A stretch of 63,965 bases of DNA, counting the filler, from Psammoneis japonica (lineage: Eukaryota), in NCBI GenBank assembly GCA_008632985.1. It is 4 parts of 4 records of this genome, joined end to end, with 100 filler letters (N's around TTAATTAATTAA, not from the genome) between each part and the next. Parts side by side here need not be neighbours in the genome. Positions count along the whole stretch, not along the records: positions 1 to 29,857 come from QPGO01000387.1; 3 more parts are not named here. One strand, 5' to 3'. The notes beneath the pieces are model-generated. The model saw only the letters and a program-made list of their open reading frames with translations, searched no databases and was not told the origin of the DNA. A program made the position numbers and the translations under genes. Below, one piece after another: positions 1 to 46,788 of this stretch. Position 1 is the first letter of the stretch; every line of letters begins with the position of its first letter.

Positions 1-745
1 TTATACGATGACACGGAAAATGGCTCTGGTTCTGGATCGGTTCGATTGTTTCAATACAACCGCGGCTCCTCATCCTGGAACCAACTCGGACAAACACTCA
101 TTGGCCAAGCTGCTGATGATCGTTTTGGACGTTCCGTTTCCTTGAATGCGCAGGGAACCATTGTCGGCGTTGGAGCTGATGAAATGATTCGGGTGGAAAC
201 ATGCGGGTCAAGTGTCGGTGTTTGAATACAATTCTGCCTCGTCAAAATGGGATCCGTTGGGCAATCCAATCAATGGCCAAGTCGATTATGGTTGGTTTGG
301 ATGGTCGTTTCTCTTGACGACAGCGGTTTGATCGTGGCCGCGGGTGCACCTTTTGGCAACAACGAGAGAGTTTTGGTTTATTCGTACGACCGCTCGACTT
401 TGACATGGAAGCAACGTGGCCAAACTCTCTTGACACAACAGCCTGGTGATGATTTTGGTTACTCAGTGTCGTTGAGTGGCAATGGAAATGTCTTGGCGGT
501 CGGAAGCATTTGGCATGACGTCAATGGATCAAGCAACGTGGGTCAAGTTCGAATCTTTCAGCACGACAGCAATGCAGACGAATGGAAGCAAGTTGGAAAT
601 CCTTTAAATGGCAAGGCTGAGAAGATTTTGGATTCCGTTTCCTTGTCGGCCGACGGAAGCGTCGTTGGAGTTGGTGCACGGCTTGGCTGATGTCAATGGC
701 GACGATTCCGGATCCGCGTACGCATTCACGGTAAATGACAATTAG
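1..745 (+). CDS. 3' end (FG-GAP propeller repeats) of an upstream copy of the MLKL-like kinase receptor; 5' part lies outside the window
   Basis: Near-identical to ~14720-15471. Encodes FG-GAP-like repeats (DDRFGRSVSL, DDFGYSVSLSGNGNVLAVG) and ends ...SAYAFTVNDN with TAG at 743-745. Small indels break the frame. Confidence 0.8.
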
Positions 746-3474
746 AAAATGTATTTTGCGCTACATCCTCTTGTATCAATCACACTGTATTTTTTGTAGT
801 TTAGTTCATTTGGTAGACCGTACATTTGCGTCGTTTGGCTCGTGTCATTGTGTGCTGTTTTTCGCGTTTGTTCCAAAAATCAAAAAAGTCTGTCTGTCGT
901 GCGATTCCGCTAGTCTATCACGAACCACACATCACACACACACACATCACACATCGGCTCGCGGTCTTGAACAACCATGACGCTATCAACAGCACTACGA
1001 ATCATCATGTAACAACAACAACAACGATGTCATAACGTTTGGAGGANTCCGCCTCGTGAGTAGAACACATCAACAATGAGAGTTGTTTTGAACAAACTGT
1101 GTTGTTGTTGCATGAGTCGAATGCTGCCGCTTGTGAAAATCATTGACACGCTGCTGCTGCCACGCACGCTACAATATTGTTGTTGTACATGTCTACGCAC
1201 TCTCATACTCATCACTCCTTCTCTTTCACACACTCTCTCTCTCTCTCTCTTGACTACACGTAATGATTCACTTAAGTGTTGTCAAGACACACAAGTCCTT
1301 TGAGGGCTTGACTGCAGCCACCGGGGAGCATGCCCACAGAGTATGGAATCAGCAGCAGAGCCGGAACCAGTCAATCAAAAGTCAAACAACTGTCTCAGCA
1401 AGCACTCATAGGCATGGTGGAGCGAAGGTATTGTACGAGTATACTGGATGCAACCAACGAACGATTTCTGTGATGCGGTTCACGGTCGCTTCTATTCGGA
1501 TATGCTGCTGGAGAAACGCGTTGCTGCTGCTGCCACTGCTCCTACAAAGGACAATAGCGACTCGCTCGTGGCATGCGCAGCGAAAGCTCCTTTTTTGTTG
1601 GCTGTATCCTTGATGAATGTGATGTTGGAGAGAAACCAATGGTGCTGCCACGCACGCTGTTGTTGTTGTTGTTGTTGTTGTCATGCATGTCTACGTACTC
1701 TCTCAAACGAATTAAAAATGGCATCCATCCACACTAGTTTGGGCGTGCGACTCTGTGAATGTTGCTGAGCTCTTTCGAGATGTGGGCTTTGAACAACGCG
1801 TCGGTTATTATGCAGTGATGTGTTTTGAATGTACGTGTTTGATGTTGTTTCCATGTATTGCTGATTCATAACCATCTGCAGCGACCTGGGTGGTAATGTA
1901 TGGATTTTTTGGAAAAGAGTTGCAACTCGTATAAAGTGGATTGGAAACCACGTGTGTCTCGCGGTCGGACAGTTCTCCAGCACAAACCATGGCGGCGCCT
2001 GTTGGATATCATACAGTGAACAAGTAGCGGGTGGAACGGGCTTGTTGGGAACTGCTGTGGTGGGACTAGACGAAAAAGCGCGATGAGGAAATCAACATCC
2101 AAACAACCACAACCGAAGGGGGGTGCACGGTGCCGGTACTGCTACTACTACTACTACTGCTACTACTGTACGAACTATATAACAACAATGACACGGATGA
2201 TTATGACTTTGGAAATGTCGATATCTTTGTTTCGACCATTCCATCGACACCCGTCAATATTAACGATGACAACGACAAGAAGGATGACGAAGAGTATTAG
2301 TAGTATCAACAATGGCACTAATAACAATGGCGCGGTGGTGGAAATATCATTTCATCCTATGGAGACTTGAAAGCACGATTTGCCGATAAACTCAACAAAA
2401 AAAAGGGACCGCTTGGCTGCTTGTGGGATGTCTTTGTTCCTCCCTACTACTGCTGCGAATAATAAGGACAAGGACAATGAAAACCACTACCATGACCTTG
2501 GAGATGTCGATAGAGGAAGGGGTTCCTTTGATACCACATGCGTGGCGGAATATAAAAATGTACAATTGCAAGAACGAAACTGAATCCTCGAGACGGTTGG
2601 GAAGCGATGGAGGATGAAGTCGTGAATCATGAACGCTGCTCCGACTCGACTGTTGTTGCAAATAATATATTGTCGGCCTATACTGTGCAACCCGTCTGGA
2701 AGACACTCTCTGCATTGCTAAGGAGTATTTGTCTTGGAATCGGTAGAGCCTGAACCAGTGTCTCTCAAAAAGTCAAACTCCTGTCTCGGCAAACAATGCA
2801 GGCACGGTGGAGCAAGCACACTGGATGCAACGAACGATTCGTGACGTGGTCTTGGAATTTCTGCGCTCTCTTCATTTCGCCAGGCGCTTTTTTTGGATTT
2901 CCAAGGAACTCTCTAGACTGACTGCTCTCCACTCTCTAGCTGTAGCTCTAGAGATCCCTACATAAAGAGTAACACGTCCCCAGCTGCTAGTAGAGCCACT
3001 CTCTCACATGACAGTACAATAGAGAGAGTGTTTTAGACTTTTTTTATAGAGACAATAGAGGACGCACGCCGCATGCTATGCTAGCTAGCTGCTTTCCGTC
3101 CCAGCTTCGTGACACCACGTGTAAAAATTAACCCCCCATTTTTAAACAAATGCCCACCTCGATCGACTAACAGTAACCAGATACGAAGTTCAACACACTT
3201 TTTGGGGGCCTAGACTGGGGGTAAACGTTAGTTACTGACCAATCACTGAATGTTGACTCTCACACTTGCGACTCTCTCTCTCTCTCTCTCTAGAGTGGCC
3301 AGTGGCCTGCTCTCGCTCTCTCTGGAGGCAGAGCTAAAGCAGAGAACAGAGAGCAGGTCCAGAGAGCAGAGGCCACTGCTGTTGTTGCCATGGTGACTGC
3401 TGTTGCCATCGCTGCTGCTGTTGTGGCTCTGCCTCCTCTGCCAGTTTGCTGCTCTGTCATTGCACGAGCACTCN

Positions 3475-4400
3475 GATTCGAATGGGTCGAATTTCATTCC
3501 CGAGTCGTCGTGACTCGTTCATACGGTGCGTGTCTAGTGTTTTCCAATCAACCAGTTCATGCTTGTACCAGTCCGGGAATCCGTCATGTTGATGGGTGAA
3601 GTGGATTTCGCTGTCGCCATGAAACCTGCATGCGGCAACCGCGGCATTCATGCCGGTTCCGCATCGCTTCCAGTCGCGGTGCCGCCACATGCCTGCAACT
3701 CTTTTTTTGTGGGAGCCTTGTTTGCCTGTAAAGCGCTGCTCAATCAGAGCTGTCATTGGACGTGCAACCGATTCGTTTGGGTTGCCGGGGCCGTGTGTGT
3801 CGTCACAGTGAATGTCCGCATACCGCGTAAGTCGGAGCTGATCGCCTCGCATCATGGTCTGGCTGCAGCTGGTCCGTGCCACCGCCAAGTTCTTCCAAGC
3901 TGCAGACTGAACAACGCAGTTCAAAATTTTGTCCTCAGCAATGCGAGATAGAGCATCCGCAGGCAGCTTGTCGTGAGCTGATGCAAACTCAGTGAGCAAA
4001 TTTTGGGTGCATCGCTCCTTGTGTGCCACCAGAAGCGACGTCAACTGCCTCTGATCTCACAACGAATTTTGGATTGGGAGGTTTGTGCTCCTCCCAAGAT
4101 GAACAATGCTGCAGTGACCAAATGACATGCTTGGCCGACTTTGGCGTGACGTCTCTTTTTGACACTGCTTCCAAGAAGTGCCGGTCGACCTGGTCTCGCG
4201 TCAAGTGAGGCGGCCCCGACAGAGCCGGCGATTCGTCCACCCATCTTTTGCATGCACTCCACTCAGTGACAAAGTGCCATCCACCTTGGGTGGTGTGATG
4301 GTTTGGGCCAACAAGTCTCCCATGGAGACTAGAGACACCATCGTGTGGGTCTCTTCTTTGCATTTGTGACAGCCTCGAGGGATCGTTTTTGGGGTGCACC
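3475..4400 (-). mobile_element. Degenerate Crypton-like / NDC10-II-type tyrosine-recombinase-related element
   Basis: Minus-strand frames give HLTRDQVDRHF, MMRGD and GMWRHRDWKRCGTG...CRF. These resemble the RH(K/R)D..C..G..A...RF motif of NDC10-II/Crypton proteins once Y->H/C changes are reversed. Strongly TpA-depleted. Confidence 0.5.
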
Positions 4401-4784
4401 CACCTCGCTGTCAAAAGAAAAGAGGTTTTTGAAATCAAACGCTCACTTGTGGCGGTCGACAAGTGGAGTCGTTTCGAAACATGTTGACATTCGAGTGGGA
4501 AGAAAGAACATTTCGACAAGTGGATTTTGTGTCATGCCCTGTTCTGAAGGTTCTTGTCTTCACCAACCACAGGCCTGTCCGGGGTCCGGGAACCGGTTCC
4601 AGGGGTGGTTCCGGCGCCGGCCTCCTGCGGGCAGGAACTGCTGAGGACTCCCCCGGATGGCTCGGTCAACCCGTGATGTCAGGGGAAAGCGTGCCCCCCA
4701 ATCAGCGGTGGTTGTTCCTGCCAACCGAGGTCGCGCGACCCACCACTCGAGACTTGTGACTCAAAGTCACGAGCGCTCGTGCCA

Positions 4785-6100
4785 TTGAGACGACTCTCTC
4801 TCTCTCTCTCTCTCTCTAGAGTGGCCAGTGGCCTGCTCTCGCTCTCTCTGGAGGCAGAGCCAAAGCAGAGAACAGAGAGCAGGTCCAGAGAGCAGAGGCC
4901 ACTGCTGTTGTTGCCATGGTGACTGCTGTTGCCATCTCTGCTGCTGTTGTGGCTCTGCCTCCTCTGCCAGTTTGCTGCTCTGTCATTGCACGAGCACTCA
5001 CGAGCCATCGCATCCATGCCAAGCTCATCTCATCACTGTGTTGCATTGGTGACCACTCATTGCAGCTTTTCAAAGGCCACACTTGACAAAAACCAGAGCT
5101 GTGCACTTTGTGAAGAAATGCTGCAGATGTTTGGTTGGCCAGCTGCAGATCCGCAGCACACCAATGTGAAACATGATGCTGGTCAATTTCGGTTGACCCA
5201 GAGTTTTCAAACAAGCTGCCCATCACTTTTTTTTGCCTGGCTGCCCCCAACTCTGACTTTTCATTTTTGAGTCTTGCTGCAGTTGCTGGGTTTGTTTTGC
5301 ACGTGGCTCCTTCAGTGTTTTGCCAGTGCTTTGTCAAATCTTTCATGCCAGCCCTTGTTGGTGAGTTTCCTGCTTGAGCCTGGTTGGAGATCCGGGATTC
5401 CAGGAAACACAGCCTTGTGCACTTGCAGCAAAATGTCCAAATCTTGATTTGTTGTGCCATTTGCACATGCCTTCCAAGCAGTGTCACATCATCCACCCAC
5501 GACTTCTTTGTTCTTGAATCTCAACCCACAAATTTGCCAGCATGTCTTGTTCTCTGATTTTTCACTTCAGCACAGCTCTCTCCAACTCAAAACACTTTGC
5601 TGAGCACATCACAGTTGCTCTGTTGGAAGTCTCAAAAGGTCCCCTGGTGCCAAAGCTGGTGCAGCATCTCTTGCTTGGGCAATGGCAGCCCAGAGCTGGT
5701 CTTCAGCCATCTCATCACACTCGGTCACCACTGCAAGTCCAATCTCTTTGGCCAAAACTTTCTCTTGCACCACCACCTTTTTGCACTTCAACACAGTGGG
5801 TGCCAGAAATCTGGCTGCTGGCGGGTGGTGTCGCGACAAAGCAAAAGGCATGCTCCAATGTTTTGTGCACAGAGCTTCTGTTGTGATGGTCCAAAAAATG
5901 ACAAATGTTCAGACACCCATGACACCCTGTCAATGTCATCGTCAGCTCCCGCGGGTTTTGACAAGTTCTCCGTGCAGTGTCAGTTGTCACTGCGGTGATG
6001 GTCTGTGCGCTAATCCGGAGCACATCACCTGCCATGCCAATTTCGAATGATTGCGGTTGATGATTCGTTCGATTCGAGTCCGGGTTCTGAGCTCACCGAT
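4785..6100. mobile_element. Unclassified TpA-free repeat or TE remnant starting at a (CT)n tract
   Basis: No TA found by eye from 4819 to 6010; CpG also low. Overlapping spurious Cys/His-rich ORFs. No recognisable domain. Confidence 0.45.
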
Positions 6101-6264
6101 CATGGATTTACCGCACTGGATGGAGCCGCGGCCGTCGCAAAACAACACCATGATGCCTCTTTACCTCTCTTGTTGATACTACTGTAATTGCATTGTCATC
6201 ATGGCTTCGTGGTATACAGAAACAACAATATTGTCGTCGCTGTTGTCTGCTGCTTACGTCATAA

Positions 6265-8776
6265 CAACACCGATGCCGTTCAAGCATACCGGTCAAGCCC
6301 GGAAGCTTTTTCCAATTTCTAACCTATCTCTACGCGGAACGCAAGTTTATTCTTGTCATCTTGATTCACTTTGTTTGTACCATGGTAATTTGGGGTGAGT
6401 AGAGTATATTGTATGATTGAGTTGTGTGTGTGTGTGTGTGTGATTTGCTATACTCATCTCAAACATACCGCCGCACCTCTATACCGTACTCCCTAACATA
6501 ATACTACAGCACACTTCTTTGTGGTCAAGTTTCATCAACAAGAAAACAAAGTACCCGAGGACGCAAATCGATATTGGTGGAAACGTCTCGCTCCGCCACT
6601 CGAGTTTGGAGCCATGCATGCCATTTTGTTTCAAATGGCATTCCTACCGCTCACCATGGCTCGGCTCTCCATTGCGGCAGCCTCCAAAACATCTCTCAAT
6701 ACGTACTTTCCCTTCAACAAGAGTCAGCGCATTCATATTCATTTGGGATACGTCTTTGGGAGCATTGTTGTGATTGCCACGATTTTCTTTTTTGCCTTTT
6801 TTGGATTGCTTTGTTCCGATGGCGAACAAGCGTTTTGTGACAAGTTTACGTCGGAAATCATGATTACGGGGTACATTACCGTGGCCTTTGTCTTGATTAT
6901 CCTCTCTACATCATTCTTTCGAGATTACATGCCATACGAAGTCTTTTATGGCATTCATCATTTGGTATTTGCCATGTACCTGGTGGTCTTGTTGCATACG
7001 ATCGATATCAACGTTCGAAAGGACGGACAGAATCGGAGTCAAACCTTCAAGTGGTTTTCGGCGACACTCTTGTACTACGTTTCGGACCGCCTTGCCATGC
7101 GGCTTAATCATCGCTACAAGACGCGTGTCCTTCAAGCCAAAATTGTCAAGAATACAAAGTCGAGTATGATTTTGCTACAGCTCAGACGTCCGTCCTTGTT
7201 TCAATACGAACCGGGTCAGTACGCGCATCTTCGGTTTCCCGACATTGATTCGTATTGGCATCCCTTTTCGATTGGAAGCAGTCCGGATTCCAATGTGTTG
7301 GAGTTTTATATTGAAGTCTATGACGACAAATCGTGGACGGGAAAACTCTGTCAATTGTTGGGTAATGACGTTTGCCACGAGAATGTTCGTGTTCAAGTCA
7401 TGGGCCCGTACGGAACACGCTTGGGTGATACTCATCGATACTCTCATGCCATGGCTATTGGCAGTGGTTCTGGTGTGGTTCCCATCTTGGGTCTCTACAA
7501 AAAGCACATTTGTCAGCTACTCCGATTGGACCCACAAACATACTTTGAAGAACAAGCTCAAATGCATTCGCAACTCAAGCGTATGGAACGAGCGCGAGAA
7601 CAAACACGTGGATCGTGGCTCAACTACTTTTTGCGGTGTTCACCTCAACCGACCCGACACGAAATGGGCGTCATTTCTGGAATCTTTGATTCGAGCAATG
7701 CCGAAACCAAGGACTTGCGAGAGGCGGCCAAGCGTGCGTCCTTACCGATTTATGGCGTCAATATATTGATGCAACTGGTTGTCTTGGGAGTAATCATGTT
7801 GGGATTGACCTTGTCGTGGAATACCATGCCGTTTGAACTCTACGACGGCATGCGAGAAGTGTTGATTGTTGGCTCGATTGTGTTTCAAGGCGCCTTTGCC
7901 GTTGTGTCGATTGGATACTGGGACCGCGGCTCGTTGCTGGCGTATGTTGATGTTTTGATTGTCATTGCTGGTGCCGTGGCCAATTGGTATTGGTTTGAGT
8001 ACGACAAGTGGGCCAACTTTGAAGCGGCAGAGCATGTGTATTACATCTTGTTGTTTGGATACATGACGGCGCGGTTGTGGCATTCGGCCGTCAAGCCACG
8101 ATACTGTTCATTGCGGAGCAGCTTGGAACGACAACACACGAGTTCAGCATTGGACAAGCTGCACTTTGTTTGGATTACGCGTTCATCCACCAACGTTTTG
8201 AAGATTGCACCCACAATCATGCAAGAATGGAATGCGCTTGTTGCGGCGTGGGGATTGGAGAATGCCGTCAAGGTGTGTCAGGTTTCTATTTACGTTACCG
8301 ACAAGGACAAGGCCGCCGTGGGCTATCTCAAGCAGGAGTTGTCCAAGACGCCCCTTTACAAGCAAGGTGCATTCCATTATGAGCGTCCTGACATTTCCAA
8401 ATTGTTGGAAGAGCATGCCATGGAACGCATTTATGATGAGAGTCGTCCCACCTCGTCTACCCTCTTGTGCTTTTGCGGATCTCCCAAGCTATCATCAGTG
8501 ATAAGCAAAGCCAAGACCATTGTGGATATATCAACAATGATTACGGGAAACAAGTACCACCAAATGGATTTCGTTTCCGAGAGTTACAGTGCCTACACGA
8601 AGCGTCCGTCGTCGTCGAACAATAGCAACGCGGTAGTTGTCGCTGCCTCGGCAAAGACGCCACAGTACAGTGTCTTTATGGATTCACCCAGCTTTATGGA
8701 GAAGCAACATTCGGGAGATGAATTGGATACGACGGATACCTTTGAAGACAATGAGGACCACCTTATTTCCATTTGA
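6265..8776 (+). CDS. NADPH oxidase / ferric reductase-like flavocytochrome (red-algal/diatom RBOH type); intron 6395-6509; true start not resolved
   Basis: His-bearing TM helices (RIHIHLG; IHHLVF...LLHTID), FAD motif WHPFSI, GPYG, NADPH motif AIGSGSGVVP and C-terminal FCGS...ESY. About 4 extra hydrophobic helices sit inside the NADPH domain. The GTGAGT(6395)...CTAAC...CAG(6509) intron joins upstream exon PGSFFQFL...HFVCTMVIW in frame. Confidence 0.85.
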
Positions 8777-9069
8777 GACTACAGAGGATCGTGGACGGCA
8801 CGCAACTTTAGAATTGTTTTAGTTTACCTTGCGCATTTATAATTTATAACTACCTCAGCATACATTGATTGTCTTCAGCCTGTGATTCATAACTACCCCA
8901 GCATGCATTGATCGATTTCAGCTTTTGTGTGTTAGTCTTTTCAATTGAGAACTAGATGCATTTACAATGCCTCCAGTTCCATTTGAGATGTGCATCTGGC
9001 TTTTAGAGGCACATGCTGGGAAGCCATTTTGCTTCATTTTTCCTTGAGCAACTTCCACAAGAAGCTCGA

Positions 9070-9912
9070 AAATGCCCAACCTGGCCTGATTGCGAAACTT
9101 CTGCGTGCAGCCAAGATGGAAGACTGCAATGGATCTCCAACTCCTGCCCTTCCCATCTCTGTTGGCAGTGACACAGAAGGCCACCATTCGATGAACCTTG
9201 TGACTGCCGATCTGTGGTTGGCATGTTGATGCATCCAGTGCCCAACAGCTGTCTGGACATCATCTGCACTGCCCATCAATTTGCTTGGTTCTCCTGTGCT
9301 CCAAAAGCCTCCCATGCCATTGCTGTCCAATGCATTCTTTGACACTTGAAGGACACGACTGACAAAGGGCTCATCCCAGCCCCAACCATGGATCAACGAC
9401 TTGATTGTCATGTTGATGCCAATTTTGTGGGTCTCTTCCATGTTGAGGATGATCAGGTTCCTGCTTCTGTTAAGTCTCGCACAGGATGTCCAAGCTGCAG
9501 CGGCCCCTCATGGTTTTGTCTCTGCTGTTGGAGGCAGAGAATGTTTCTCTCCCAATCAATGCATGGCCTCATTCCCCTTTGTGAGATCTTGAAGGAAATC
9601 AATGCACATGCTTTTGGTCAGCTGGACAGGAAGAATGGCATCACCACACATGCCAAGGCTTTCCAACCCACCAACGATGGAACCAATTCACCCCCATTGC
9701 CTCTGCCAGCATCAGCTTGCTCACACGCCAAAACTGTCCCCACAAACCAAGCACACCATCATGCCTTGTCACCAGTTTTGTGCTGAAGTTGAGGCTTTGG
9801 AGATCAAGATTGAGCCTGTCAGCTCTGCTGCACAGCTTGCTGACCAGTTTGCTGGGGGTTTGACTGCTGCTGATCTGTTCTGCACTTGTTGTGGGGCCCT
9901 CATGGGCTGGCG
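9070..9912 (+). mobile_element. Ty1/copia (CoDi-like) RT/RNase H remnant, heavily mutated
   Basis: QPGLIAKLL...TPALP...CRSVVGMLM...LDCHVDANF...KSRTG...QLADQF...LMGW. Same family as 62737-63965. Both TpA and CpG are depleted; the depleted tract spans ~8990-10640. Confidence 0.85.
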
Positions 9913-11032
9913 ACTGTTTGTCCTGCTTCTCTTGATTTTGCAGGCAGGCTGGGAGAAAATGAGTCAATTTGCTGCTGTTCTGTTGCTTTCCCCAAACAAC
10001 AATGGCAAGTCTGCCACCCGTGGCAGAATGTGCAATCAAGGAATTGCTGCGGCAACATGAAGAAAACGCAGCAAGCCACCAAGGAAGAAGAGTGTCCGTC
10101 AACGGCTGTTTTGAAGGTCCTGCTTCACTTGAGCTGCACCAATGTAAAAGTGATGCAGGCTTCACACTTTTTCATCTTGCAGTCTTCTTTGCAAACATCC
10201 TTTTGAAATGCCTGGCACCACGTGCAAAGCTTTTGGGTCCATCAGGAATGAACCGCTCTCACAGCTCTTTTTGTGCTCGATCGACGACAATGGGGCGAAC
10301 AACCCAAGGTCCAAATTGTCATGGGTCTTTTTGGCAAATGCAAATGACTGTGCACCGGAGTGGAGTGGCTTTCCATGAGACAACAAACGCCAACGTTGGA
10401 AAACAAGGGTGGGTCTTTTTTCAACAATGGCAGACTTGACAACATGCATTGATTGACCAAGGTGGCAAAACACGCCACGTGTGCACCAACAACAGCATCA
10501 TCATTTCTGCTCGACAACAACAGGGGATGATTTCGATTGGTGTTGTTGGTTTGGTTGTTGATGTTGAAGTGAAGTGCGGCATTGGCGGCCTCTCTTTTTG
10601 GCACGCACCGGCCGGCTGGCACGCACCGGTGTGACTGCACCTATGTGGGTGACAGACGGACGGACCAACCGGATGGCCACATAGTACGCCCGCCTAAAAC
10701 CAACATGCGTGCAGCGCAACGCTTGAACCGCACGATCGTTCATCGCGGGAATAAGCATGCAAGCAGTTGGAAGTTGAAGTTATTGGTTATTGTTCTGTTG
10801 TTCTTCTGTTATCCCATTGCTTCATTTAATTCGTTCCTGCCCTTGTCTCAAGGGCAAGCGTCGCTGTTCTACAGCATAATCGATCTCGCCTTGTTGCCAT
10901 TGTGTTGGTGCCTGTCTCCTTTGCAGTTGCGTTTCTGCTGAGCAGAGGAACCACCTCTTGTCTCGCGTCTCACCGATCCGGACTCCGCAATTTTGATTCT
11001 GCATCTCGCAGAAAGACACAAAAACAGCAGAC

Positions 11033-14000
11033 ATGCTTGGTGACATCATCGCCGGCATAGAAGCGGCTTTCAACTTGTGCGCCGTGATTTACAAGAGCTA
11101 TGAAACGGTAAAGATCATGCCGGATTTGGCCAAGACCCTCAAGGACCGCGTACAAATATTCAAACCGCGACTCGAGAAACTCGTTAGGGAATGCCAGGCA
11201 TCAGGCACATCACAGAAGGTAATTCCGCTTTTGCATATTCAAAGCTTGAACACGGTGTTGGGTGACATTCAAAAGTACATGAAGAAGCTTCAGGATGACT
11301 CTAAACTACGAAAGTTGAAGAATCGGGTGTTTTATCAGAGTCTCCTGGATGAATATGAAGAGCTCAACACCAAGCTCAATCGTTGTCGGGATGATCTTAA
11401 ATTTGACTTTGAGTTTGATGTCGATGCCGAGAGAAAAGCGTTTGAGAATGAAACGAAAGGTCTCCTACAGTGTCTTATTGATCATCAGGGTCAAGAGCAC
11501 CGTATTCTGCGCGAGATGCTTTCTGAAGTCCTCAGGTTCATCAAGGGTCACAAAGCGCTAAATCTCAATGAACAAAACAGTCCTGCTATTGTGACCGCTT
11601 CTGCATTTATGGACAATAGTGACTCTGCAACTCTACGAGCTATCATTGATGAGCAGAGTGCCATTGAATATGAACTCCCGCCATCGGAGGTCGTTTTAGA
11701 AGATATCGAGCTTGGAGCAGGCACCTTTGGTGTCGTATACAAGGCAACATACAATAATCAAGATGTTGCCATCAAGAAGCCTCATCGTCGAGAATCGGAT
11801 GTTTTGGCGGAACTCATGAACCAAGAAAGATGCAGCGGCTCGCCTTTTGTTGCCCTTATACACGGCTTTGTTTATGTCAATGAGATTCGGTCTATTGTTA
11901 TGGAGTTCATGCCATGTGGTACTCTAGGAGGTCTACTACGCCACGCAATGGGAAGGGATGGGATTGTGTCCATCAGCAAGGACCAGCAAAGTCTCGAGGC
12001 CACACTAGCTGCGTACACAGTAATTCAGCTCTTTCACAAGGTTAGTGAGGGAATGCGATTCATCAGTCAACGTAATGTGATACACCGCGACCTCAAGCCG
12101 GAGAATATTCTTCTAAGTCAAACTCTTGACCCCAAGATTGGGGATTTTGGGTCTGCTCGAGAGCTCGCAAACAGCGCGACTCACCTTTCGGGATCCGCTG
12201 CTGGATCTGTATACTATATGGCTCCGGAAGTATTGACGGTCCTTAAAGCTGACAAAGGACAATACTCCTATCCTGCCGACCAGTACAGTTTTGGAATGAT
12301 CATGGTTAAATGCTGCCATGGTCTGTTTGGTCAGCAGTCTCGTGTGGACCGGCACGACGAGGACGCGCCTCTTCCAGAGATTCCTCTTCCTGATGCGTTC
12401 CCTTCTTCGGTAACAGATATCAAGAACAATTGCATTGCTTCAGACCCATTGATGCGCTATGGTCGTGGCACCGCTTCAGAATCACTTCTATCAGAAGCGT
12501 TCGAGAAGGTACTGCAGCAATTGGATAGCTCTGTCTCTTATCCAAAGATTGATGGGTATTATGGTGACGACGTTGCAGAGGTGGCAAATATTGCTCGGAT
12601 CGCTTTTGAGAGTAAGACGCATCGTGGGGTATCTGGCATTATAACTTCGTCCTCATCGCTGATCCCAACACCCGGCATGGAGAAGAAGCCATTGAAGGAC
12701 GGAGAGCCGAGCTACTCCACCGCGTCCTTGTCACATTCGTCTACATCCGCGAAAGAACCGGTTCCTCGTGCAAGGAAGGAGAAGAAAAAGAAGAAACCGA
12801 CTGCTGATCTCCGAGTTCAAAAAGAGCAAAGTGCATCGTCTCGCAGAAAAAAGCGTCCTGATCTCCGAGTTCAAAAAGAGCAAAGTGCATCGTCTCGCAG
12901 GAAAAAGCGTCCAACTCGTTCCGGCAGCTCGAAAGAAAAAGGACAACCAGCGCAAACTGGATCATCAGCAATTGCTTCAAGTGGTCACAATGACAGTGCT
13001 GAAAGAGAACGGGGCGTTAAGGACGAGACGCAAAATACAAGCGAATATCATAGCCGCACCAGTCGGGAGAGGTCCGTCAACAGCACAGCCACAGCAAGCC
13101 TTGCGCTATCGGCTGCCGCGTATGTCGCGCCAGATGCTTTCACAGTGACGTCTGGAGACCAAGCTGCACAACCCGAAGAACCGGACAGAGATGACCGCGT
13201 CACAGTTACTTCAGATTCCAACAAAGTGATGGAGATGGATCCAGCACAAGTCGTAGAGGCGGTTCCTGCTACTTCTGATGGTGGTGGTGGCGGACAGAAT
13301 GAGAAAGCAAATGACACAACGCGAATTAGTGACGAGGATGAGAATGCTGAAGATGAGCTTCATCGCAAGTACCTTCGCAAACGATTCATTATTCCGGGCG
13401 TTGTATTGTTGGCGATTGCAGCGATTGTCAGTATTGTTGTTGCAGTAAAGCCGTGGGACACAGGTGGTGGAGGGAGCCCCACTTTCCCCCCTACTGTTTC
13501 CCCTACTGTTGCACCCGCCACAGAGACTACCGAACGAGCCACCGGTTTGGTCATGAGTTTGATTGGTATTGATACCGAGTTTGATGAAAATGATTCCGAG
13601 TTGTGGGCTACGGCAACCAAAGCATTCGTCGAGGATTATTACAACACTCGTCGTCGTCGTCGTGGCCTTGGCTATCTCCAGACCCCTCGTATATTACAAG
13701 TATCGAATATACAGAATGTCGAGACGTCTTTGGATGTTACTAACACCATTGTGGTTGAAGATGGCAATGGTGGAGAACCATCCCTTCGAGTCACATACAA
13801 CCAAGCTATCACGTATACTTTTGAAGACAGCAGCAACGAAAACATTTCCATGGATGCCATGGTGACCGAACCATTCAAGACGTCTGATAGTCGATCGGCC
13901 TACCAAAAAGACCTCCAGGCGGCGGGCACCAGTGCTGGAAGCAACATTTTTGACAATTTGATTGGCACTAGTGAAGTTTCAACCAGCACAGCTGCTCCGA

Positions 14001-15471
14001 CACCGTCACCTACAAATAGCATTCCAATTACGGAACTACCAACACAAGATCCCGCGTCGCCACCGTCGACTCCGGGTCCAACGACTCTCAATCCAACATC
14101 GTTGCCGACGACAAACCCTACTCCTCGTCCAACTCTCAATCCAACACCTCGTCCTACACTCAATCCAACGCCTCGTCCAACTCTCAATCCAACTCCACGC
14201 CCCACTCCATCACCAGCTCCAACAACACCCAATCCCACCAGTGGTGGTGGCAGCAGTAGTTTGCCGCCAAACGGTCCATGGAATCCCGTTGGACAAACTT
14301 TGCACGGCAAGGCTGCAGATGATTTTTTTGGCGATTCCGTGTCCTTGTCTCGTGATGGCAGGGTCATGGCTGTTGGAGCGGAGCAATCTTCTTCCAATCC
14401 CGGCTATGTTGTTGTGCAACGATACAATCCAAACACCCAACAATGGGAACAAATTGGCCAAGAATTGATTGGACAAGCCGGCGGTGACGAGTTTGGAGAG
14501 TCTGTTTCGTTAAATGGCGATGGCACGATTCTTGCAGTTGGAGCGGATGACAATGACAGTGGTGGAACAAATGCCGGTCACGTTCGTGTGTTTGAATACA
14601 ACTCGGCATCGGATCGTTGGGTCCAACTCGGCAGCGACATTCTTGGACAAGACGCTGGTGATTTGTTTGGTTTTCCGTGTCGCTTTCGGATGCGGGAGAC
14701 ATTCTTGCCGTGGGAGCGTTACGGTACGATGACACGGAAAATGGCTCTGGTTCCGGATCGGTTCGATTGTTTCAATACAACCGCGGCTCCTCATCCTGGA
14801 ACCAACTTGGACAAACACTCATTGGCCAAGCTGCTGATGATCGTTTTGGACGTTCCGTTTCCTTGAATGCGCAGGGAACCATTGTCGGCGTTGGAGCTGA
14901 TGGAAATGATTCGGGTGGAAACAGTGCTGGTCAAGTGTCGGTGTTTGAATACAATTCTGCCTCGTCAAAATGGGATTTGTTGGGCAATCCAATCAATGGC
15001 CAAGTCGTTAATGGTTGGTTTGGATTTTCGGTTTCTCTTGACGACAGCGGTTTGATCGTGGCCGCGGGTGCACCTGGAACAAGCAACGAGAGAGTTTTGG
15101 TTTATTCGTACAACCGCTTGACTTTGACATGGAAGTCAACGTGGCCAAACTCTCTTGACACAACAGCCTGGTGATGATTTTGGTTACTCAGTGTCGTTGA
15201 GTGGCAATGGAAATGTCTTGGCGTCGGAAGCATTGGCATGACGTCAATGGATGATCAATGCGGGTCAAGTTCGAATCTTTCAGCACGACAGCAATGCAGA
15301 CGAATGGAAGCAAGTTGGAGATCCTTTAAATGGCGAGGCTGAGGAAGATCGTTTTGGATTCCGTTTCCTTGTCGGCCGACGGAAGCGTCGTTGGAGTTGG
15401 TGCACATTTGGCTGACGTCAATGGCGACGAGTCCGGATCGGCGTATGCATTCACAGNTAAATGACAATTAG
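11033..15471 (+). CDS. Type-II membrane protein: MLKL/HeLo-like four-helix bundle + protein kinase + TM + Pro/Thr stalk + FG-GAP beta-propeller
   Basis: Kinase motifs intact: GAGTFG, VAIK, HRDLKPEN, DFG, YMAPE. Single TM after a basic cluster (RKRFIIPGVVLLAIAAIVSIVVAV), then PTPRPTLN repeats and FG-x-SV-SL...G..LAVGA repeats. The frame shifts near 14670 and again after 15130; stop TAG at 15469-15471 by comparison with 743-745. Confidence 0.85.
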
Positions 15472-18400
15472 AAAATGTATTTTGCGCTACATCCTCTTGT
15501 ATCAATCACACTGTATTTTTTGTAGTTTAGTTCTTTGGTAGACCGTACATTTGCGTCGTTTGGCTCGTGTCATTGTGTGCTGTTTTTCGCGTTTGTTCCA
15601 AAAATCAAAAAAGTCTGTCTGTCGTGCGATTCCGCTAGTCTATCACGAACCACACATCACACACACACACATCACACATCGGCTCGCGGTCTTGAACAAC
15701 CATGACGCTAATCAACAGCACTACGAATCATCATGTAACAACAACAACAACGATGTCATAACGTTTGGAGGATTATCCGCCTCGTGAGTAGAACACATCA
15801 ACAATGAGAGTTGTTTTGAACAAACTGTGTTGTTGTTGCATGAGTCGAATGCTGCCGCTTGTGAAAATCATTGACACGCTGCTGCTGCCACGCACGCTAC
15901 AATATTGTTGTTGTACATGTCTACGCACTCTCATACTCATCACTCCTTCTCTTTCACACACTCTCTCTCTCTCTCTCTTGACTACACGTAATGATTCACT
16001 TAAGTGTTGTCAAGACACACAAGTCCTTTGAGGGCTTGACTGCAGCTACCGGGGAGCATGCCCACAGAGTATGGAATCAGCAGCAGAGCCGGAACCAGTC
16101 AATCAAAAGTCAAACAACTGTCTCAGCAAGCACTCATAGGCATGGTGGAGCGAAGGTATTGTACGAGTATACTGGATGCAACCAACGAACGATTTCTGTG
16201 ATGCGGTTCACGGTCGCTTCTGTTCGGTTGTGCTGCTGGATGAACGCATTGTTGCTGCCACTGCTCCTCCTCCTCCAAAGGACAATAGCGAGTCGCTCGT
16301 GGCATGCGCAGCGAAAGCTCCTTTTTTGTTGGCTGTATCCTTGATGAATNNNNNNNNNNNNNNNNNNNNNNNNNNNNNNNNNNNNNNNNNNNNNNNNNNN
16401 NNNNNNNNNNNNNNNNNNNNNNNNNNNNNNNNNNNNNNNNNNNNNNNNNNNNNNNNNNNNNNNNNNNNNNNNNNNNNNNNNNNNNNNNNNNNNNNNNNNN
16501 NNNNNNNNNNNNNNNNNNNNNNNNNNNNNNNNNNNNNNNNNNNNNNNNNNNNNNNNNNNNNNNNNNNNNNNNNNNNNNNNNNNNNNNNNNNNNNNNNNNN
16601 NNNNNNNNNNNNNNNNNNNNNNNNNNNNNNNNNNNNNNNNNNNNNNNNNNNNNNNNNNNNNNNNNNNNNNNNNNNNNNNNNNNNNNNNNNNNNNNNNNNN
16701 NNNNNNNNNNNNNNNNNNNNNNNNNNNNNNNNNNNNNNNNNNNNNNNNNNNNNNNNNNNNNNNNNNNNNNNNNNNNNNNNNNNNNNNNNNNNNNNNNNNN
16801 NNNNNNNNNNNNNNNNNNNNNNNNNNNNNNNNNNNNNNNNNNNNNNNNNNNNNNNNNNNNNNNNNNCTGTACGAACTATATAACAACAATGACACGGATG
16901 ATTATGACTTTGGAAATGTCGATATCTTTGTTTCGACCATTCCATCGACACCCGTCAATATTAACGATGACAACGACAAGAAGGATGACGAAGAGTATTA
17001 GTAGTATCAACAATGGCACTAATAACAATGGCGCGGTGGTGGAAATATCATTTCATCCTATGGAGACTTGAAAGCACGATTTGCCGATAAACTCAACAAA
17101 AAAAAAGGGACCGCTTGGCTGCTTGTGGGATGTCTTTGTTCCTCCCTAATACTACTGCGAATAATAAGGACAAGGACAATGAAAACTACAATGACCTTGG
17201 AGATGCCGATAGAGGAAGGGGTTCCTTTGATACCACATGCGTGGCGGAATATAAAAATGTACAATTGCAAGAACGAAACTGAATCCTCGAGACGGTTGGG
17301 AAGCGATGGAGGATGAAGTCGTGAATCATGAGCGCTGCTCCGACTCGACTGTTGTTGCAAATAATATATTGTCGGCCTATACTGTGCAACCCGTCTGGAA
17401 GACACTCTCTGCTATGGGGTGTTTGTCTTGGAATCGGTAGAGCCTGAACCATGGTCTCTCAAAAATTCAAACTCCTGTCTCGGCAAACAATGCAGGCACG
17501 GTGGAGCAAGCGTACTGGATGCAACGAACGATTCGTGACGTGGTCTTGGAATTTCTGCGCTCTCTTCATTTCGCCAGATGCTTTTTTTGGATTTCCAAGA
17601 AACTCTCTAGACTGACTGCTCTCCACTCTCTAGCTGTAGCTCTAGAGATCCCTACATAAAGAGTAACACGTCCCCAGCTGCTAGTAGAGCCACTCTCTCA
17701 CATGACAGTACAACTTGCAAGAACGAAACTGAATCCTCGAGACGGTTGGGAAGCGATGGAGGATGAATTCATGAATCATGAGCGCTGCTCCGACTCGACT
17801 GTTGTTGCAAATGATATATTGTCGGCCTATACTCTGCAACCCGTCTGGAAGACACTCTCTGCATTGCTAAGGAGTAGTTGTCTTGGAGTCGGTAGAGGCT
17901 GAACCATGGTCTCTCAAAAATTCAAACTCCTGTCTCGGCAAACAATGCAGGCACGGTGGAGCAAGCGTACTGGATGCAACGAACGATTCGTGACGTGGTA
18001 TTGGAATTTCTGCGCTCTCTTCATTTCGCCAGATGCTTTTTTTGGATTTCCAAGAAACTCTCTAGACTGACTGCTCTCCACTCTCTAGCTGTAGCTCTAG
18101 AGATCCCTACATAAAGAGTAACACGTCCCCAGCTGCCAGTAGAGCCACTCTCTTGCACGACAGTACAATAGAGAGAGAGAGTGCTTTGGATTTTAAGAGA
18201 GATAATAGAGGACGCACACAGCATGCTATGCTAGCTAGCTGCTTTCCGTCCCAGCTTCGTGGCACCACGTGTAAAAATTAACCCCCCATTTTTAACCAAA
18301 TGCCCACCTCGATCGACTGGCAGTAACCAGATACGAAGTTCAGCACACTTTTGGGGGCCTAGAGAATGGGGGTGAACGTTAGTTACTAACTAACCAATCA

Positions 18401-18577
18401 CTGAATGCTGACTTTGCACTTGCCCGTGTGACAAAGGTGCACCACGAAAAGTTAGTTTTATTTTGAAATACCGAGATACCATGAACAACACATGCCCATT
18501 GCATTCTTGCAAGACATTGTTTTTTAAAGACTGGGAGACCGATGATGCTCATGTCTTGTGCACTTTGTAGCTCTGCT

Positions 18578-19552
18578 CTAGCTAGCTGGGGTCAAAGTCC
18601 AACTGTTTTTTTGGATCAACGATTCGATTCGAATGGGTCGAATTTCATTCCCGAGTCGTCGTGACTCGTTCATACGGTGCGTGTCTAGTGTTTTCCAATC
18701 AACCAGTTCATGCTTGTACCAGTCCGGGAATCCGTCATGTTGATGGGTGAAGTGGATTTCGCTGTCGCCATGAAACCTGCATGCGGCAACCGCGGCATTC
18801 ATGCCGGTTCCGCATCGCTTCCAGTCGCGGTGCCGCCACATGCCTGCAACTCTTTTTTTGTGGGAGCCTTGTTTGCCTGTAAAGCGCTGCTCAATCAGAG
18901 CTGTCATTGGACGTGCAACCGATTCGTTTGGGTTGCCGGGGCCGTGTGTGTCGTCACAGTGAATGTCCGCATACCGCGTAAGTCGGAGCTGATCGCCTCG
19001 CATCATGGTCTGGCTGCAGCTGGTCCGTGCCACCGCCAAGTTCTTCCAAGCTGCAGACTGAACAACGCAGTTCAAAATTTTGTCCTCAGCAATGCGAGAT
19101 AGAGCATCCGCAGGCAGCTTGTCGTGAGCTGATGCAAACTCAGTGAGCAAATTTTGGGTGCATCGCTCCTTGTGTGCCACCAGAGCGACGTCAACTGCCT
19201 CTGATCTCACAACGAATTTTGGATTGGGAGGTTTGTGCTCCTCCCAAGATGAACAATGCTGCAGTGACCAAATGACATGCTTGGCCGACTTTGGCGTGAC
19301 GTCTCTTTTTGACACTGCTTCCAAGAAGTGCCGGTCGACCTGGTCTCGCGTCAAGTGAGGCGGCCCCGACAGAGCCGGCGATTCGTCCACCCATCTTTTG
19401 CATGCACTCCACTCAGTGACAAAGTGCCATCCACCTTGGGTGGTGTGATGGTTTGGGCCAACAAGTCTCCCATGGAGACTAGAGACACCATCGTGTGGGT
19501 CTCTTCTTTGCATTGTGACAGCCTCGAGGGATCGTTTTTGGGGTGCACCCAC
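18578..19552 (-). mobile_element. Second copy of the Crypton/NDC10-II-like remnant
   Basis: 324-aa open frame with the same motifs as 3475-4400. Confidence 0.5.
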
Positions 19553-21412
19553 CTCACTGTCAAAAGAAAAGAGGTTTTTGAAATCAAACGCTCACTTGTG
19601 GCGGTCGACAAGTGGAGTCGTTTCGAAACATGTTGACATTCGAGTGGGAAGAAAGAACATTTCGACAAGTGGATTTTGTGTCATGCCCTGTTCTGAAGGT
19701 TCTTGTCTTCACCAACCACAGGCCTGTCCGGGGTCCGGGAACCGGTTCCAGGGGTGGTTCCGGCGCCGGCCTCCTGCGGGCAGGAACTGCTGAGGACTCC
19801 CCCCGGATGGCTCGGTCAACCCGTGATGTCAGGGGAAAGCGTGCCCCCCAATCAGCGGTGGTTGTTCCTGCCAACCGAGGTCGCGCGACCCGCCACTCGA
19901 GACTTGTGACTCAAAGTCACGAGCGCTCGTGCCATTGAGACGACTCTCTCTCTCTCTCTCTCTCTAGAGTGGCCAGTGGCCTGCTCTCGCTCTCTCTGGA
20001 GGCAGAGCCAAAGCAGAGAACAGAGAGCAGGTCCAGAGAGCAGAGGCCACTGCTGTTGTTGCCATGGTGACTGCTGTTGCCATCTCTGCTGCTGTTGTGG
20101 CTCTGCCTCCTCTGCCAGTTTGCTGCTCTGTCATTGCACGAGCACTCACGAGCCATCGCATCCATGCCAAGCTCATCTCATCACTGTGTTGCATTGGTGA
20201 CCACTCATTGCAGCTTTTCAAAGGCCACACTTGACAAAAACCAGAGCTGTGCACTTTGTGAAGAAATGCTGCAGATGTTTGGTTGGCCAGCTGCAGATCC
20301 GCAGCACACCAATGTGAAACATGATGCTGGTCAATTTCGGTTGACCCAGAGTTTTCAAACAAGCTGCCCATCACTTTTTTTTGCCTGGCTGCCCCCAACT
20401 CTGACTTTTCATTTTTGAGTCTCACTGCAGTTGCTGGGTTTGTTTTGCACGTGGCTCCTTCAGTGTTTTGCCAGTGCTTTGTCAAATCTTTCATGCCAGC
20501 CCTTGTTGGTGAGTTTCCTGCTTGAGCCTGGTTGGAGATCCGGGATTCCAGGAAACACAGCCTTGTGCACTTGCAGCAAAATGTCCAAATCTTGATTTGT
20601 TGTGCCATTTGCACATGCCTTCCAAGCAGTGTCACATCATCCACCCACGACTTCTTTGTTCTTGAATCTCAACCCACAAATTTGCCAGCATGTCTTGTTC
20701 TCTGATTTTTCACTTCAGCACAGCTCTCTCCAACTCAAAACACTTTGCTGAGCACATCACAGTTGCTCTGTTGGAAGTCTCAAAAGGTCCCCTGGTGCCA
20801 AACTGGTGCAGCATCTCTTGCTTGGGCAATGGCAGCCCAGAGCTGGTCTTCAGCCATCTCATCACACTCGGTCACCACTGCAAGTCCAATCTCTTTGGCC
20901 AAAACTTTCTCTTGCACCACCACCTTTTTGCACTTCAACACAGTGGGTGCCAGAAATCTGGCTGCTGGCGGGTGGTGTCGCGACAAAGCAAAAGGCATGC
21001 TCCAATGTTTTGTGCACAGAGCTTCTGTTGTGATGGTCCAAAAAATGACAAATGTTCAGACACCCATGACACCCTGTCAATGTCATCGTCAGCTCCCGCG
21101 GGTTTTTGACAAGTTCTCCGTGCAGTGTCAGTTGTCACTGCGGTGATGGTCTGTGCGCTAATCCGGAGCACATCACCTGCCATGCCAATTTCGAATGATT
21201 GCGGTTGATGATTCGTTCGATTCGAGTCCGGGTTCTGAGCTCACCGATCATGGATTTACCGCACTGGATGGAGCCGCGGCCGTCGCAAAACAACACCATG
21301 ATGCCTCTTTACCTCTCTTGTTGATACTACTGTAATTGCATTGTCATCATGGCTTCGTGGTATACAGAAACAACAATATTGTCGTCGCTGTTGTCTGCTG
21401 CTTACGTCATAA

Positions 21413-23922: not shown

Positions 23923-24216
23923 GACTACAGAGGATCGTGGACGGCACGCAACTTTAGAATTGTTTTAGTTTACCTTGCGCATTTATAATTTATAACTACC
24001 TCAGCATACATTGATTGTCTTCAGCCTGTGATTCATAACTACCCCAGCATGCATTGATCGATTTCAGCTTTTGTGTGTTAGTCTTTTCAATTGAGAACTA
24101 GATGCATTTACAATGCCTCCAGTTCCATTTGAGATGTGCATCTGGCTTTTAGAGGCACATGCTGGGAAGCCATTTTGCTTCATTTTTCCTTGAGCAACTT
24201 CCACAAGAAGCTCGAA

Positions 24217-25058
24217 AATGCCCAACCTGGCCTGATTGCGAAACTTCTGCGTGCAGCCAAGATGGAAGACTGCAATGGATCTCCAACTCCTGCCCTTCCC
24301 ATCTCTGTTGGCAGTGACACAGAAGGCCCACCATTCGATGAACCTTGTGACTGCCGATCTGTGGTTGGCATGTTGATGCATCCAGTGCCCAACAGCTGTC
24401 TGGACATCATCTGCACTGCCCATCAATTTGCTTGGTTCTCCTGTGCTCCAAAAGCCTCCCATGCCATTGCTGTCCAATGCATTCTTTGACACTTGAAGGA
24501 CACGACTGACAAAGGGCTCATCCCAGCCCCAACCATGGATCAACGACTTGATTGTCATGTTGATGCCAATTTTGTGGGTCTCTTCCATGTTGAGGATGAT
24601 CAGGTTCCTGCTTCTGTTAAGTCTCGCACAGGATGTCCAAGCTGCAGCGGCCCCTCATGGTTTTGTCTCTGCTGTTGGAGGCAGAGAATGTTTCTCTCCC
24701 AATCAATGCATGGCCTCATTCCCCTTTGTGAGATCTTGAAGGAAATCAATGCACATGCTTTTGGTCAGCTGGACAGGAAGAATGGCATCACCACACATGC
24801 CAAGGCTTTCCAACCCACCAACGATGGAACCAATTCACCCCCATTGCCTCTGCCAGCATCAGCTTGCTCACACGCCAAAACTGTCCCCACAAACCAAGCA
24901 CACCATCGTGCCTTGTCACCAGTTTTGTGCTGAAGTTGAGGCTTTGGAGATCAAGATTGAGCCTGTCAGCTCTGCTGCACAGCTTGCTGACCAGTTTGCT
25001 GGGGGTTTGACTGCTGCTGATCTGTTCTGCACTTGTTGTGGGGCCCTCATGGGCTGGC
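24217..25058 (+). mobile_element. Copia RT/RNase H remnant, copy 2
   Basis: Duplicate of 9070-9912. Confidence 0.85.
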
Positions 25059-29857: not shown

Positions 29858-29957
29858 NNNNNNNNNNNNNNNNNNNNNNNNNNNNNNNNNNNNNNNNNNN
29901 NTTAATTAATTAANNNNNNNNNNNNNNNNNNNNNNNNNNNNNNNNNNNNNNNNNNNN
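29858..29957. other. Artificial contig linker N44-TTAATTAATTAA-N44
   Basis: Six-frame-stop 12-mer at 29902-29913 inside exactly 100 nt. The same construct occurs three times. Confidence 0.95.
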
Positions 29958-46280: not shown

Positions 46281-46284
46281 GCCA

Positions 46285-46674: not shown

Positions 46675-46788
46675 GCCAGGCAGATGACAGACTGGGGTTG
46701 TTCTTATCTTCTTTTTGACTCCATGAGCTTTGCAGCCTCCATTTGAAGATGGCGCAGTTGCAGGTCTGTCCTTGTGCCAACAAATGTG

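Follow-up and report, generated by a model that had tools for sequence, protein, structure and literature searches.

Probable TpA-targeted hypermutation and slower CpG decay of copia-like remnants in a genomic window of the diatom Psammoneis japonica

A stretch of 63,965 nucleotides from Psammoneis japonica (assembly GCA_008632985.1), here called the window and made of contig parts joined by linkers, holds two remnants of Ty1/copia retrotransposons that are depleted, to a different extent, in the dinucleotides TA and CG, raising the question of what removed these dinucleotides, in which order, and whether before or after insertion. In a preliminary description of the locus it had been proposed that TA was mutated independently in the two copies, on both strands and after insertion, and faster than CpG was deaminated. 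The analysis reported here, whose scope is this single 64-kb window, confirmed the pattern of TA and CG changes between the copies, and the interpretation then given is, as a whole, partly supported. We consider it likely, with a probability of roughly 80%, that mobile DNA in this genome undergoes a TpA-targeted hypermutation to which CpG decay is added.

The two copies, and a twin of the first one, are located as follows.

9062-9910, plus strand: 5'-truncated copia pol remnant (9-kb copy), comprising RNase H and the C-terminal part, matched by tblastn with copia polyproteins at E ~1e-46.
24208-25057: twin of the 9-kb copy, 99.5% identical.
62737-63965, minus strand: copia reverse transcriptase-RNase H remnant (63-kb copy), on its own contig piece and ending at the window edge, tblastn E 1e-123 to 1e-130.

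The 9-kb copy corresponds to the last ~300 amino acids (aa) of the polyprotein, is frameshifted and shows an observed/expected dinucleotide ratio (o/e) of 0.02 for TA and 0.20 for CG. The 63-kb copy carries one frameshift near 63600, with 19 TAs observed for 62 expected (o/e 0.31) and 89 CGs for 92.6 (o/e 0.96). A copia-type reverse transcriptase is present in the latter, Pfam RVT_2 (PF07727) being matched on 63591-63965 (minus strand) with 74.3 bits versus a cut-off of 31.6; the 9-kb copy, being truncated, is without the RVT_2 part. Placement by tblastn used ten full-length relatives as queries and, among the matches listed for three of the ten, both 9062-9910 and 24208-25057 were collinear with residues ~1482-1783 of a 1783-aa copia polyprotein, and 62744-63962 with residues ~1304-1701. 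The 9-kb copy recurs at 24208-25057 because window positions 3475-14718 equal 18626-29857. Positions 9075-9683 and the reverse complement of the 63-kb copy were aligned by blastn with 448 of 647 positions identical (69%, E 1e-72), and outside CG and TA sites the copies are ~80% alike, with differences of 20%, 11% and 32% at codon positions 1, 2 and 3. This codon-position bias indicates that they come from already diverged lineages under selection, not from one master copy; judging from the alignment, the 9-kb and 63-kb copies would thus descend from diverged active lineages. Self-BLAST retrieved no long terminal repeat (LTR) pair for any of the TA-free patches described below, the copies being either truncated or interrupted at a contig end, or else degraded too far.

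In the global alignment of the two copies, none of the nine TA steps of the 63-kb copy is kept in the 9-kb copy, five reading CA and four TG; 7 of its 52 CG steps are kept and 45 changed, 33 of them to TG (25) or CA (8). The remaining 14 dinucleotides are kept at 324 of 541 steps (Fisher p 3e-4 for TA and 6e-11 for CG). Differences between the copies are thus enriched at TA, as the preliminary description had anticipated, and the strings that it quoted are all present: ATG TGT CTA GCG (reverse complement of 63251-63262) and ATG CAT CCA GTG (9229-9240), together with the pairs CCT TAT GAC/CCT TGT GAC, CTT ATC CTA/CTC ATC CCA, SRPD/SCLD, ARF/AWF, LREI/LCEI and DADF/DANF. Among adjacent double-transition differences, TG-vs-CA is the largest class (10 sites), followed by AT/GC (6) and by three further classes with one site each. 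Three of the ten TG-vs-CA sites polarise to an ancestral TA (9232, 9243 and 9354), in agreement with the independent mutation of TA in the two copies, and four to five to an ancestral CG (9261, 9318, 9324, 9420 and perhaps 9462).

Polarity was assigned with 60 related polyproteins, all carrying PF07727, whose listed matches are 46-60% identical to the 63-kb copy and one of which comes from Fragilaria crotonensis; columns were taken as conserved at 60% agreement or more among at least 20 of the 60 outgroups, and metagenome loci were scored at an 80% threshold. None of the 13 conserved Tyr columns of the 63-kb copy reads Tyr, eight being TGY (Cys), four CAY (His) and one ATT, and the five such columns of the 9-kb copy and its twin read Cys (two) or His (three). 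In both copies together, 17 of 18 conserved Tyr columns read Cys or His, with Tyr>Cys and Tyr>His in a ratio of 10:7. Among the lost Tyr columns is that of the YVDD motif of the consensus, which reads HVDD, the Tyr of this catalytic motif being lost. The same test on 78 related metagenome copia loci (1203 columns) gave 942 Tyr, 36 Cys or His (3%) and 225 other residues, the Cys/His excess over these loci having p = 4e-17 for the 63-kb copy and 4e-8 for the 9-kb copy. Since Tyr columns read Cys or His in both copies, TA-containing Tyr codons were lost by TA->TG or TA->CA. The loss of TA is derived and inactivating, and the two strands are hit about equally, two points on which the earlier interpretation holds. 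Conserved Arg is encoded by CGN in 12 of 18 columns of the 63-kb copy and reads TGN/CAN in 10 of 12, and CGC in 1 of 12, columns of the 9-kb copy; in the remnants of the window, CGN Arg codons were turned into Cys, Trp, His, Gln or stop codons. Of the two copies, only the 9-kb one has also lost CpG. Some TAs of the 63-kb copy seem secondary, because TAT faces Trp at 63292 (60 of 60 outgroups), Arg at 63490 (60 of 60) and Phe at 63626 (59 of 59); TAT as the ancestor in CCT TAT GAC (63292), as previously suggested, is not supported, given the aligned Trp.

Is the loss of TA a property of these copies, or of mobile DNA in the window at large? TA-free tracts, defined by a 250-bp map and by inter-TA gaps, are found at the following positions.

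3949-6011: patch A, bounded by inter-TA gaps, with a twin at 19100-21159; left part 3950-4760, TA o/e 0.02 and CG o/e 0.74; right part 4761-6010, TA o/e 0.01 and CG o/e 0.29.
9004-10642: patch B, between two host genes, made of the pol remnant (9062-9910, ratios as given above) and ~730 bp downstream, presumed 3' untranslated region or LTR (tail 9911-10641, TA o/e 0.02 and CG o/e 0.59).
24150-25787: twin of patch B, 99.5% identical, including the twin of the 9-kb copy, in a ~15-kb duplicated or second-haplotype block.
39614-46284, minus strand: patch C, the ~6.6-kb TA-free tract before an insertion resembling a miniature inverted-repeat transposable element (MITE), inter-TA gap bounds 39614-46300; over 39770-46299, TA o/e 0.04 and CG o/e 0.15.
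46285-46674: MITE-like insertion of 390 bp, flanked on either side by GCCA, with terminal inverted repeats of 25 nt that are 92% complementary.
46675-48248: D tract, a TA-poor continuation beyond the MITE-like insertion, belonging to a multi-copy family; D1 at 46706-46993 (gap bounds 46705-46994), TA o/e 0.00 and CG o/e 0.65; D2 at 47657-48247 (gap bounds 47656-48248), TA o/e 0.00 and CG o/e 0.16; TA o/e 0.21 in the middle, between D1 and D2.
59829-62636: patch E, a whole contig piece between two linkers, TA o/e 0.01-0.02 and CG o/e 0.54-0.56.
Several positions: host genes and gene-rich stretches, TA o/e 0.51-0.64 and CG o/e 0.97-1.10.

The patches measure about 2.1, 1.6, 6.5+0.3, 0.6 and 2.3 kb, with a TA o/e of 0.00-0.04 and sharp borders. 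Just two TAs are found inside patch B (9471 and 10145), TA density being normal up to 9004 and again past 10642, between two intact host genes: a NADPH-oxidase-like gene whose stop is at 8776, on the left, and a kinase/FG-GAP gene starting at 10997, on the right. Patch E, of which ~2.3 kb is known sequence, holds two TAs; a stretch of 1797 bp is the longest without any TA, at a host background of ~37 TA per kb. TG and CA are about equal in every tract (138/136, 185/168, 728/785 and 171/164 in four patches), in line with the two-strand action deduced from the Tyr columns, and the patches have CA/TG o/e of 1.35-2.0 and a GC content of 0.46-0.55, save in a 23-bp tandem array (0.32). A permissive tblastn of the patches with 36 full-length copia proteins gave weak matches to the C-terminal part (5089-5328, minus strand) and the integrase region (5644-5814, plus strand) in patch A, collinear weak pol matches on the minus strand of patch C (39828-41282; best E 2.8e-4, 21 of the 36 query proteins) and a weak integrase-region match in patch E (61703-61870, minus strand); by its collinear matches, patch C probably represents a single dead copia of nearly full length. 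Wherever the content of a patch can be recognised it is copia-like, and the flanking host genes are TA-normal. As a control, duplicated blocks outside the patches (92-97% identity) were compared, in which TA<->TG/CA accounts for 17 of 106 differences (3/36, 3/16, 8/39 and 3/15, in pairs that overlap in part), about as site frequencies predict; no hypermutation signal is therefore detected outside the patches.

The array just mentioned lies at the start of patch E (59829-60402) and is A-rich and TA-free, its 23-bp period being deduced from self-match offsets. As TAA and TAG cannot occur in TA-free DNA, many long spurious open reading frames (ORFs) arise, and 77 of them (stop-to-stop, at least 90 aa) spread over all six frames of the patches, a trap for gene callers. 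None of these 77 ORFs had a Pfam match at cut-off, and three sub-threshold matches were at chance level; TA-free tracts hence yield spurious ORFs and escape transposon annotation, distorting both gene and repeat annotation of diatoms.

As for the order of the two losses, the CG o/e of the tracts ranges from 0.96 (63-kb copy) and 0.74 down to 0.15, and no tract has lost CG and kept TA. Since TA is already gone where CG o/e is 0.74 (TA o/e 0.02), and 12 of 13 conserved Tyr codons of the 63-kb copy have become Cys or His codons with its CG untouched, TA loss is faster than CpG decay in the present host, as had been proposed, and both processes end in TG/CA, again as stated before. Across the family the same order does not apply: among related copia loci of other organisms, CG-poor copies with normal TA are common (e.g. 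L047, L080 and L008), so that the order is a property of the present host and not of copia. Two metagenome loci, L027 and L034, have TA o/e of 0.04 and 0.18 and CG o/e of 0.20 and 0.10, with open frames of 429 and 325 aa; their conserved Arg is AGR in 10-11 cases and CGN in 0-1, and L027 has CVDD in place of YVDD. Either hypermutation hit these copies recently, or their lineages are adapting to a pressure directed at TA and CG. The internal clock for element age that had been derived from the two losses does not work as far as TA is concerned: TA loss is saturated in every patch whatever its CG state, giving practically no age resolution and, saturating early, is useless as a graded clock. TA state could mark DNA that was ever targeted, and CpG state could date it.

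That TA was lost after insertion, a further proposal of the preliminary description, is suggested by three sets of variants. The MITE-like element splits a TA-free copia tract and has normal TA (o/e 0.87) and CG of its own. Its summed depth in the contigs of run X1 is ~1-2e5 versus ~60-70 for patch C and ~65 for neighbouring single-copy DNA, depth being a rough guide to copy number. These contigs, from a set of three runs of a single sample and study, are probably from the assembly's own sample and no independent support. Seven variant calls fall at six positions of its copies, and at five of these the TA of the window is replaced by CA or TG (binomial p 3e-4); as the copies vary at TA, a DNA element without a reverse-transcription step seems to undergo the same change. 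The 99.5% identical twins differ at one site by TG (5275-6) versus CA (20423-4), as would be expected if a single TA or CG had mutated one way in one twin and the other way in its counterpart once the two had separated. Where the window copy of the multi-copy tract 46987-47492 reads TG/CA, TA or CG is retained elsewhere in the family, and of 40 variants listed from run X1, 13 are TA<->TG/CA and 11 CG<->TG/CA. Though these events are few, they point with good probability to a process acting on integrated DNA and not on a retrotransposition intermediate.

The surviving TAs carry a sequence context. In the patches, 17 of 23 are YTAR (Y, pyrimidine; R, purine: CTAA 6, TTAG 5, TTAA 4 and CTAG 2), a context that makes up 13.5% of host NTAN (p 7e-11), and Y..R flanks 24% of TG/CA inside the patches (p 8e-7). 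Most of the TG excess lies in TGY and most of the CA excess in RCA, which suggests that the edited A, if A is the edited base, prefers a 3' pyrimidine. In the anticodon loop, the A edited by TadA/ADAT enzymes follows a U. As a strict target rule, T-A-Y was tried and dropped, since only 8 of 13 variant sites fit it and the 63-kb copy keeps 11 TAY; it would be a kinetic preference at most.

To account for these observations, we propose that two mutation processes, both restricted to mobile-element DNA, have rewritten dead Ty1/copia remnants in situ in a diatom nuclear genome. The faster one would be a TpA-specific transition, TpA->TpG, or TpA->CpA when acting on the other strand, running until TA is exhausted and going on to remove new TAs, so that the last survivors would be mostly YTAR; in the slower one, presumably methylated CpG would decay to TpG/CpA. 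The first would most likely proceed by host-directed deamination of A after T to I, which is read as G, in DNA that is double-stranded or for a short time single-stranded, targeted by whatever marks silenced or foreign DNA. For the enzyme, an adenine deaminase, as proposed for the alga Bigelowiella natans (see below), has about an even chance, and a role of the process in defence against mobile DNA is favoured by a modest degree.

Other explanations make different predictions for strand symmetry, residue conservation and timing. Thymine chemistry, in which the T of TpA is oxidised or modified (5-hydroxymethyluracil or base-J-like, by a TET/JBP enzyme), mispairs with G and becomes C, would give an identical outcome in duplex DNA because TA is its own reverse complement, and the strand-symmetric TpA->CpA/TpG data do not distinguish between the two chemistries. 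Thymine modification at TpA exists in some protists. Signs of such a base or enzyme in diatoms did not come up in this analysis, and the B. natans authors, having an ADAT2-like candidate, favour adenine deamination in the available part of their text (bioRxiv 10.64898/2026.01.13.699255), so that thymine chemistry is best regarded as an unlikely but serious competitor. Editing before integration, by an APOBEC- or ADAR-like host deaminase acting on copia RNA or cDNA so that copies arrive already mutated, would explain why the TA-free tracts coincide with element DNA and end at element edges, and restriction of retroelements by editing is well known (as described in the part of PMC4866542 available). 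With both strands equally hit, the expected strand asymmetry is absent; 96-100% of TAs are gone, also from the non-coding tail of ~730 bp, the same kind of variation is seen among copies of the MITE-like DNA element, which has terminal inverted repeats, and twins sharing one insertion differ by TG/CA, which makes editing of intermediates improbable. In B. natans, moreover, the process acts on integrated DNA, according to the accessible text (bioRxiv 10.64898/2026.01.13.699255).

Hypermutation would be dispensable altogether if the family natively avoided TA and CG, as a compositional adaptation of active elements. Some lineages may indeed have adapted in this way, L027 and L034 being TA- and CG-poor with open frames and Arg as AGR. 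In the window, however, the losses destroy conserved and catalytic residues (the YVDD Tyr turned into His and the Cys/His reading of nearly all Tyr columns), frames are broken, CGN Arg codons became codons for other residues or stops, and non-coding parts are equally TA-free, so that native avoidance retains the slightest probability of all.

Against TpA-targeted hypermutation with CpG decay, several points have to be set. Patches A, C and E match copia weakly (E 2.8e-4 to 0.1), and host DNA is merely a proxy for the ancestral composition of the elements. The signature occurs in just 2 of 80 related metagenome loci (L027 and L034), in a search whose patterns contained Tyr and were biased against mutated copies. 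T-A-Y fits 8 of 13 polarised or semi-polarised variants, about the background rate of 61%, and the 19 TAs kept by the 63-kb copy, 11 of them TAY, suit neither a plain preference for T-A-Y nor one sweep carried to completion. Action in place is drawn from one twin site and five MITE variant sites, in contigs probably of the source sample, and we infer both chemistry and targeting.

A comparable process has been described in B. natans (Mettrop et al., bioRxiv 10.64898/2026.01.13.699255), where, according to the part of the text available, integrated giant-virus and virophage DNA undergoes TpA-specific hypermutation. Of 231 mutations that arose in two integrated viral regions of mutation-accumulation lines, 230 were A->G/T->C and invariably fell on TpA, at a rate ~1000-fold over background and in some lines only, that is, episodically. 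The same source reports 124 TpA-poor, CpA+TpG-rich clusters enriched in reverse transcriptase and DDE domains, and proposes an ADAT2-like adenine deaminase (bioRxiv 10.64898/2026.01.13.699255). The likeness extends to TpA transitions to TpG or CpA according to strand, to their limitation to foreign or mobile DNA and to the dinucleotide profile and domain enrichment of the clusters; in our window, A->G/T->C at TpA was found on both strands and in mobile DNA only, with a separate CG->TG/CA change alongside. Unlike B. natans, a chlorarachniophyte (rhizarian), the present host is a diatom (stramenopile), and the targets are LTR-retrotransposon remnants and apparently a MITE instead of viral DNA. 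The loss is saturated here (o/e 0.00-0.04) versus a Rho of 0.45 for the nucleocytoplasmic large DNA virus region of B. natans in the text available, and CpG decay is superimposed as a second, slower process. The words diatom, stramenopile, CpG and retrotransposon do not occur in the available portion of the B. natans text (bioRxiv 10.64898/2026.01.13.699255).

Repeat-induced point mutation (RIP) of fungi likewise inactivates repeated or mobile DNA, within sharp borders, by heritable transition hypermutation in a specific sequence context. RIP changes C->T mainly at CpA, creating TpA and lowering GC, as described in the accessible part of PMC2621366. Here, unlike in RIP, TpA is destroyed (o/e 0.00-0.04), GC remains at 0.46-0.55 but for the 23-bp array (0.32), and the highest-copy element of the window is the least mutated. 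Fungal RIP was rejected as the process, as C->T at CpA, an excess of TpA and AT enrichment were not found. Diatom LTR elements are CpG-methylated, on the evidence of the part of PMC2806351 available, and, as in the decay of methylated transposons, CG->TG/CA is limited here to element DNA, host genes keeping a CG o/e of ~1.0; such decay accounts for the CG half only and cannot remove TA. With APOBEC3/ADAR editing the process shares a deaminase-type, context-dependent hypermutation of retroelements. These enzymes act on single-stranded cDNA or RNA, leaving strand-asymmetric G->A or A->G; here, unlike in such editing, both strands are equally hit and a DNA element is seemingly affected too.

A full-text literature search, with most subscription journals outside its coverage, retrieved no report of TpA loss in diatom transposons, nor is it mentioned in the available parts of PMC2806351 or bioRxiv 10.1101/2025.10.24.684338. 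The TpA signature has so far been reported solely in the unrelated alga B. natans; the diatom case is new, of a kind very recently described. If confirmed genome-wide, it would extend TpA-specific hypermutation of mobile DNA to a second lineage, distantly related to the first, making B. natans one case of a general eukaryotic defence, and would offer comparative genomics a handle on the enzyme, i.e. which deaminase or TET/JBP genes track the signature. A bolder and rather doubtful extension is that TpA erasure would defend the genomes of many lineages, at least throughout the SAR (stramenopiles, alveolates and Rhizaria) supergroup, as the mirror image of fungal RIP, and that in diatoms it would continuously attack silenced retrotransposons and MITEs until no TA remains, with YTAR disfavoured, hinting at the 3'-pyrimidine preference of a TadA/ADAT-type enzyme, and with L027 and L034 pushed to TA- and CG-poor coding; were it true, the phyletic pattern across diatoms would point to the enzyme.

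The layout of the window bears on how its parts are read. Linkers of the form N44-TTAATTAATTAA-N44, with a stop codon in all six frames, lie at 29858-29957, 59729-59828 and 62637-62736; as they separate contig pieces, the 63-kb copy and patch E need not adjoin the rest. Positions 3475-14718 match 18626-29857 over 11.2 kb at 99.5% identity (38 mismatches and 18 short gaps), within a ~15-kb unit written twice (1-14718 and 14725-29857) whose identity outside that stretch is 92-97%. Indels of 1 bp are numerous between its copies, which also contain one 517-N gap and isolated Ns at 1047, 3474 and 15457; the doubling reflects either a tandem duplication of very recent date or the serial assembly of two haplotypes.

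By its gene content, the window is nuclear DNA of a diatom. The best named relatives of the NADPH-oxidase-like ORF are diatoms, namely an MMETSP Asterionellopsis transcript (56%) and Seminavis robusta (50%), then Ditylum, Cylindrotheca and Epithemia. A dinoflagellate origin was considered and rejected: the spliced-leader motif had no match even with three mismatches allowed, and the flanking genes resemble those of diatoms. An Rfam scan of the whole window gave no match. The kinase/FG-GAP gene (10997-14866, plus strand) is an intron-less ORF of 1289 aa with a protein kinase domain, a long linker rich in Ser, Thr and Pro and an FG-GAP repeat, and its N-terminus has a weak MLKL_N-like match below cut-off. 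Pfam identified an IBR protein and a DUF7507/DUF11 repeat protein as further host genes. The latter is encoded by a tandem array at 54342-59728 (minus strand) with a 1565-bp period, ~99% identity and older ~330-bp sub-repeats inside, coding for the Ig-like DUF7507/DUF11 repeats of a surface-type protein of very large size, with ORFs of 1063, 652 and 408 aa.

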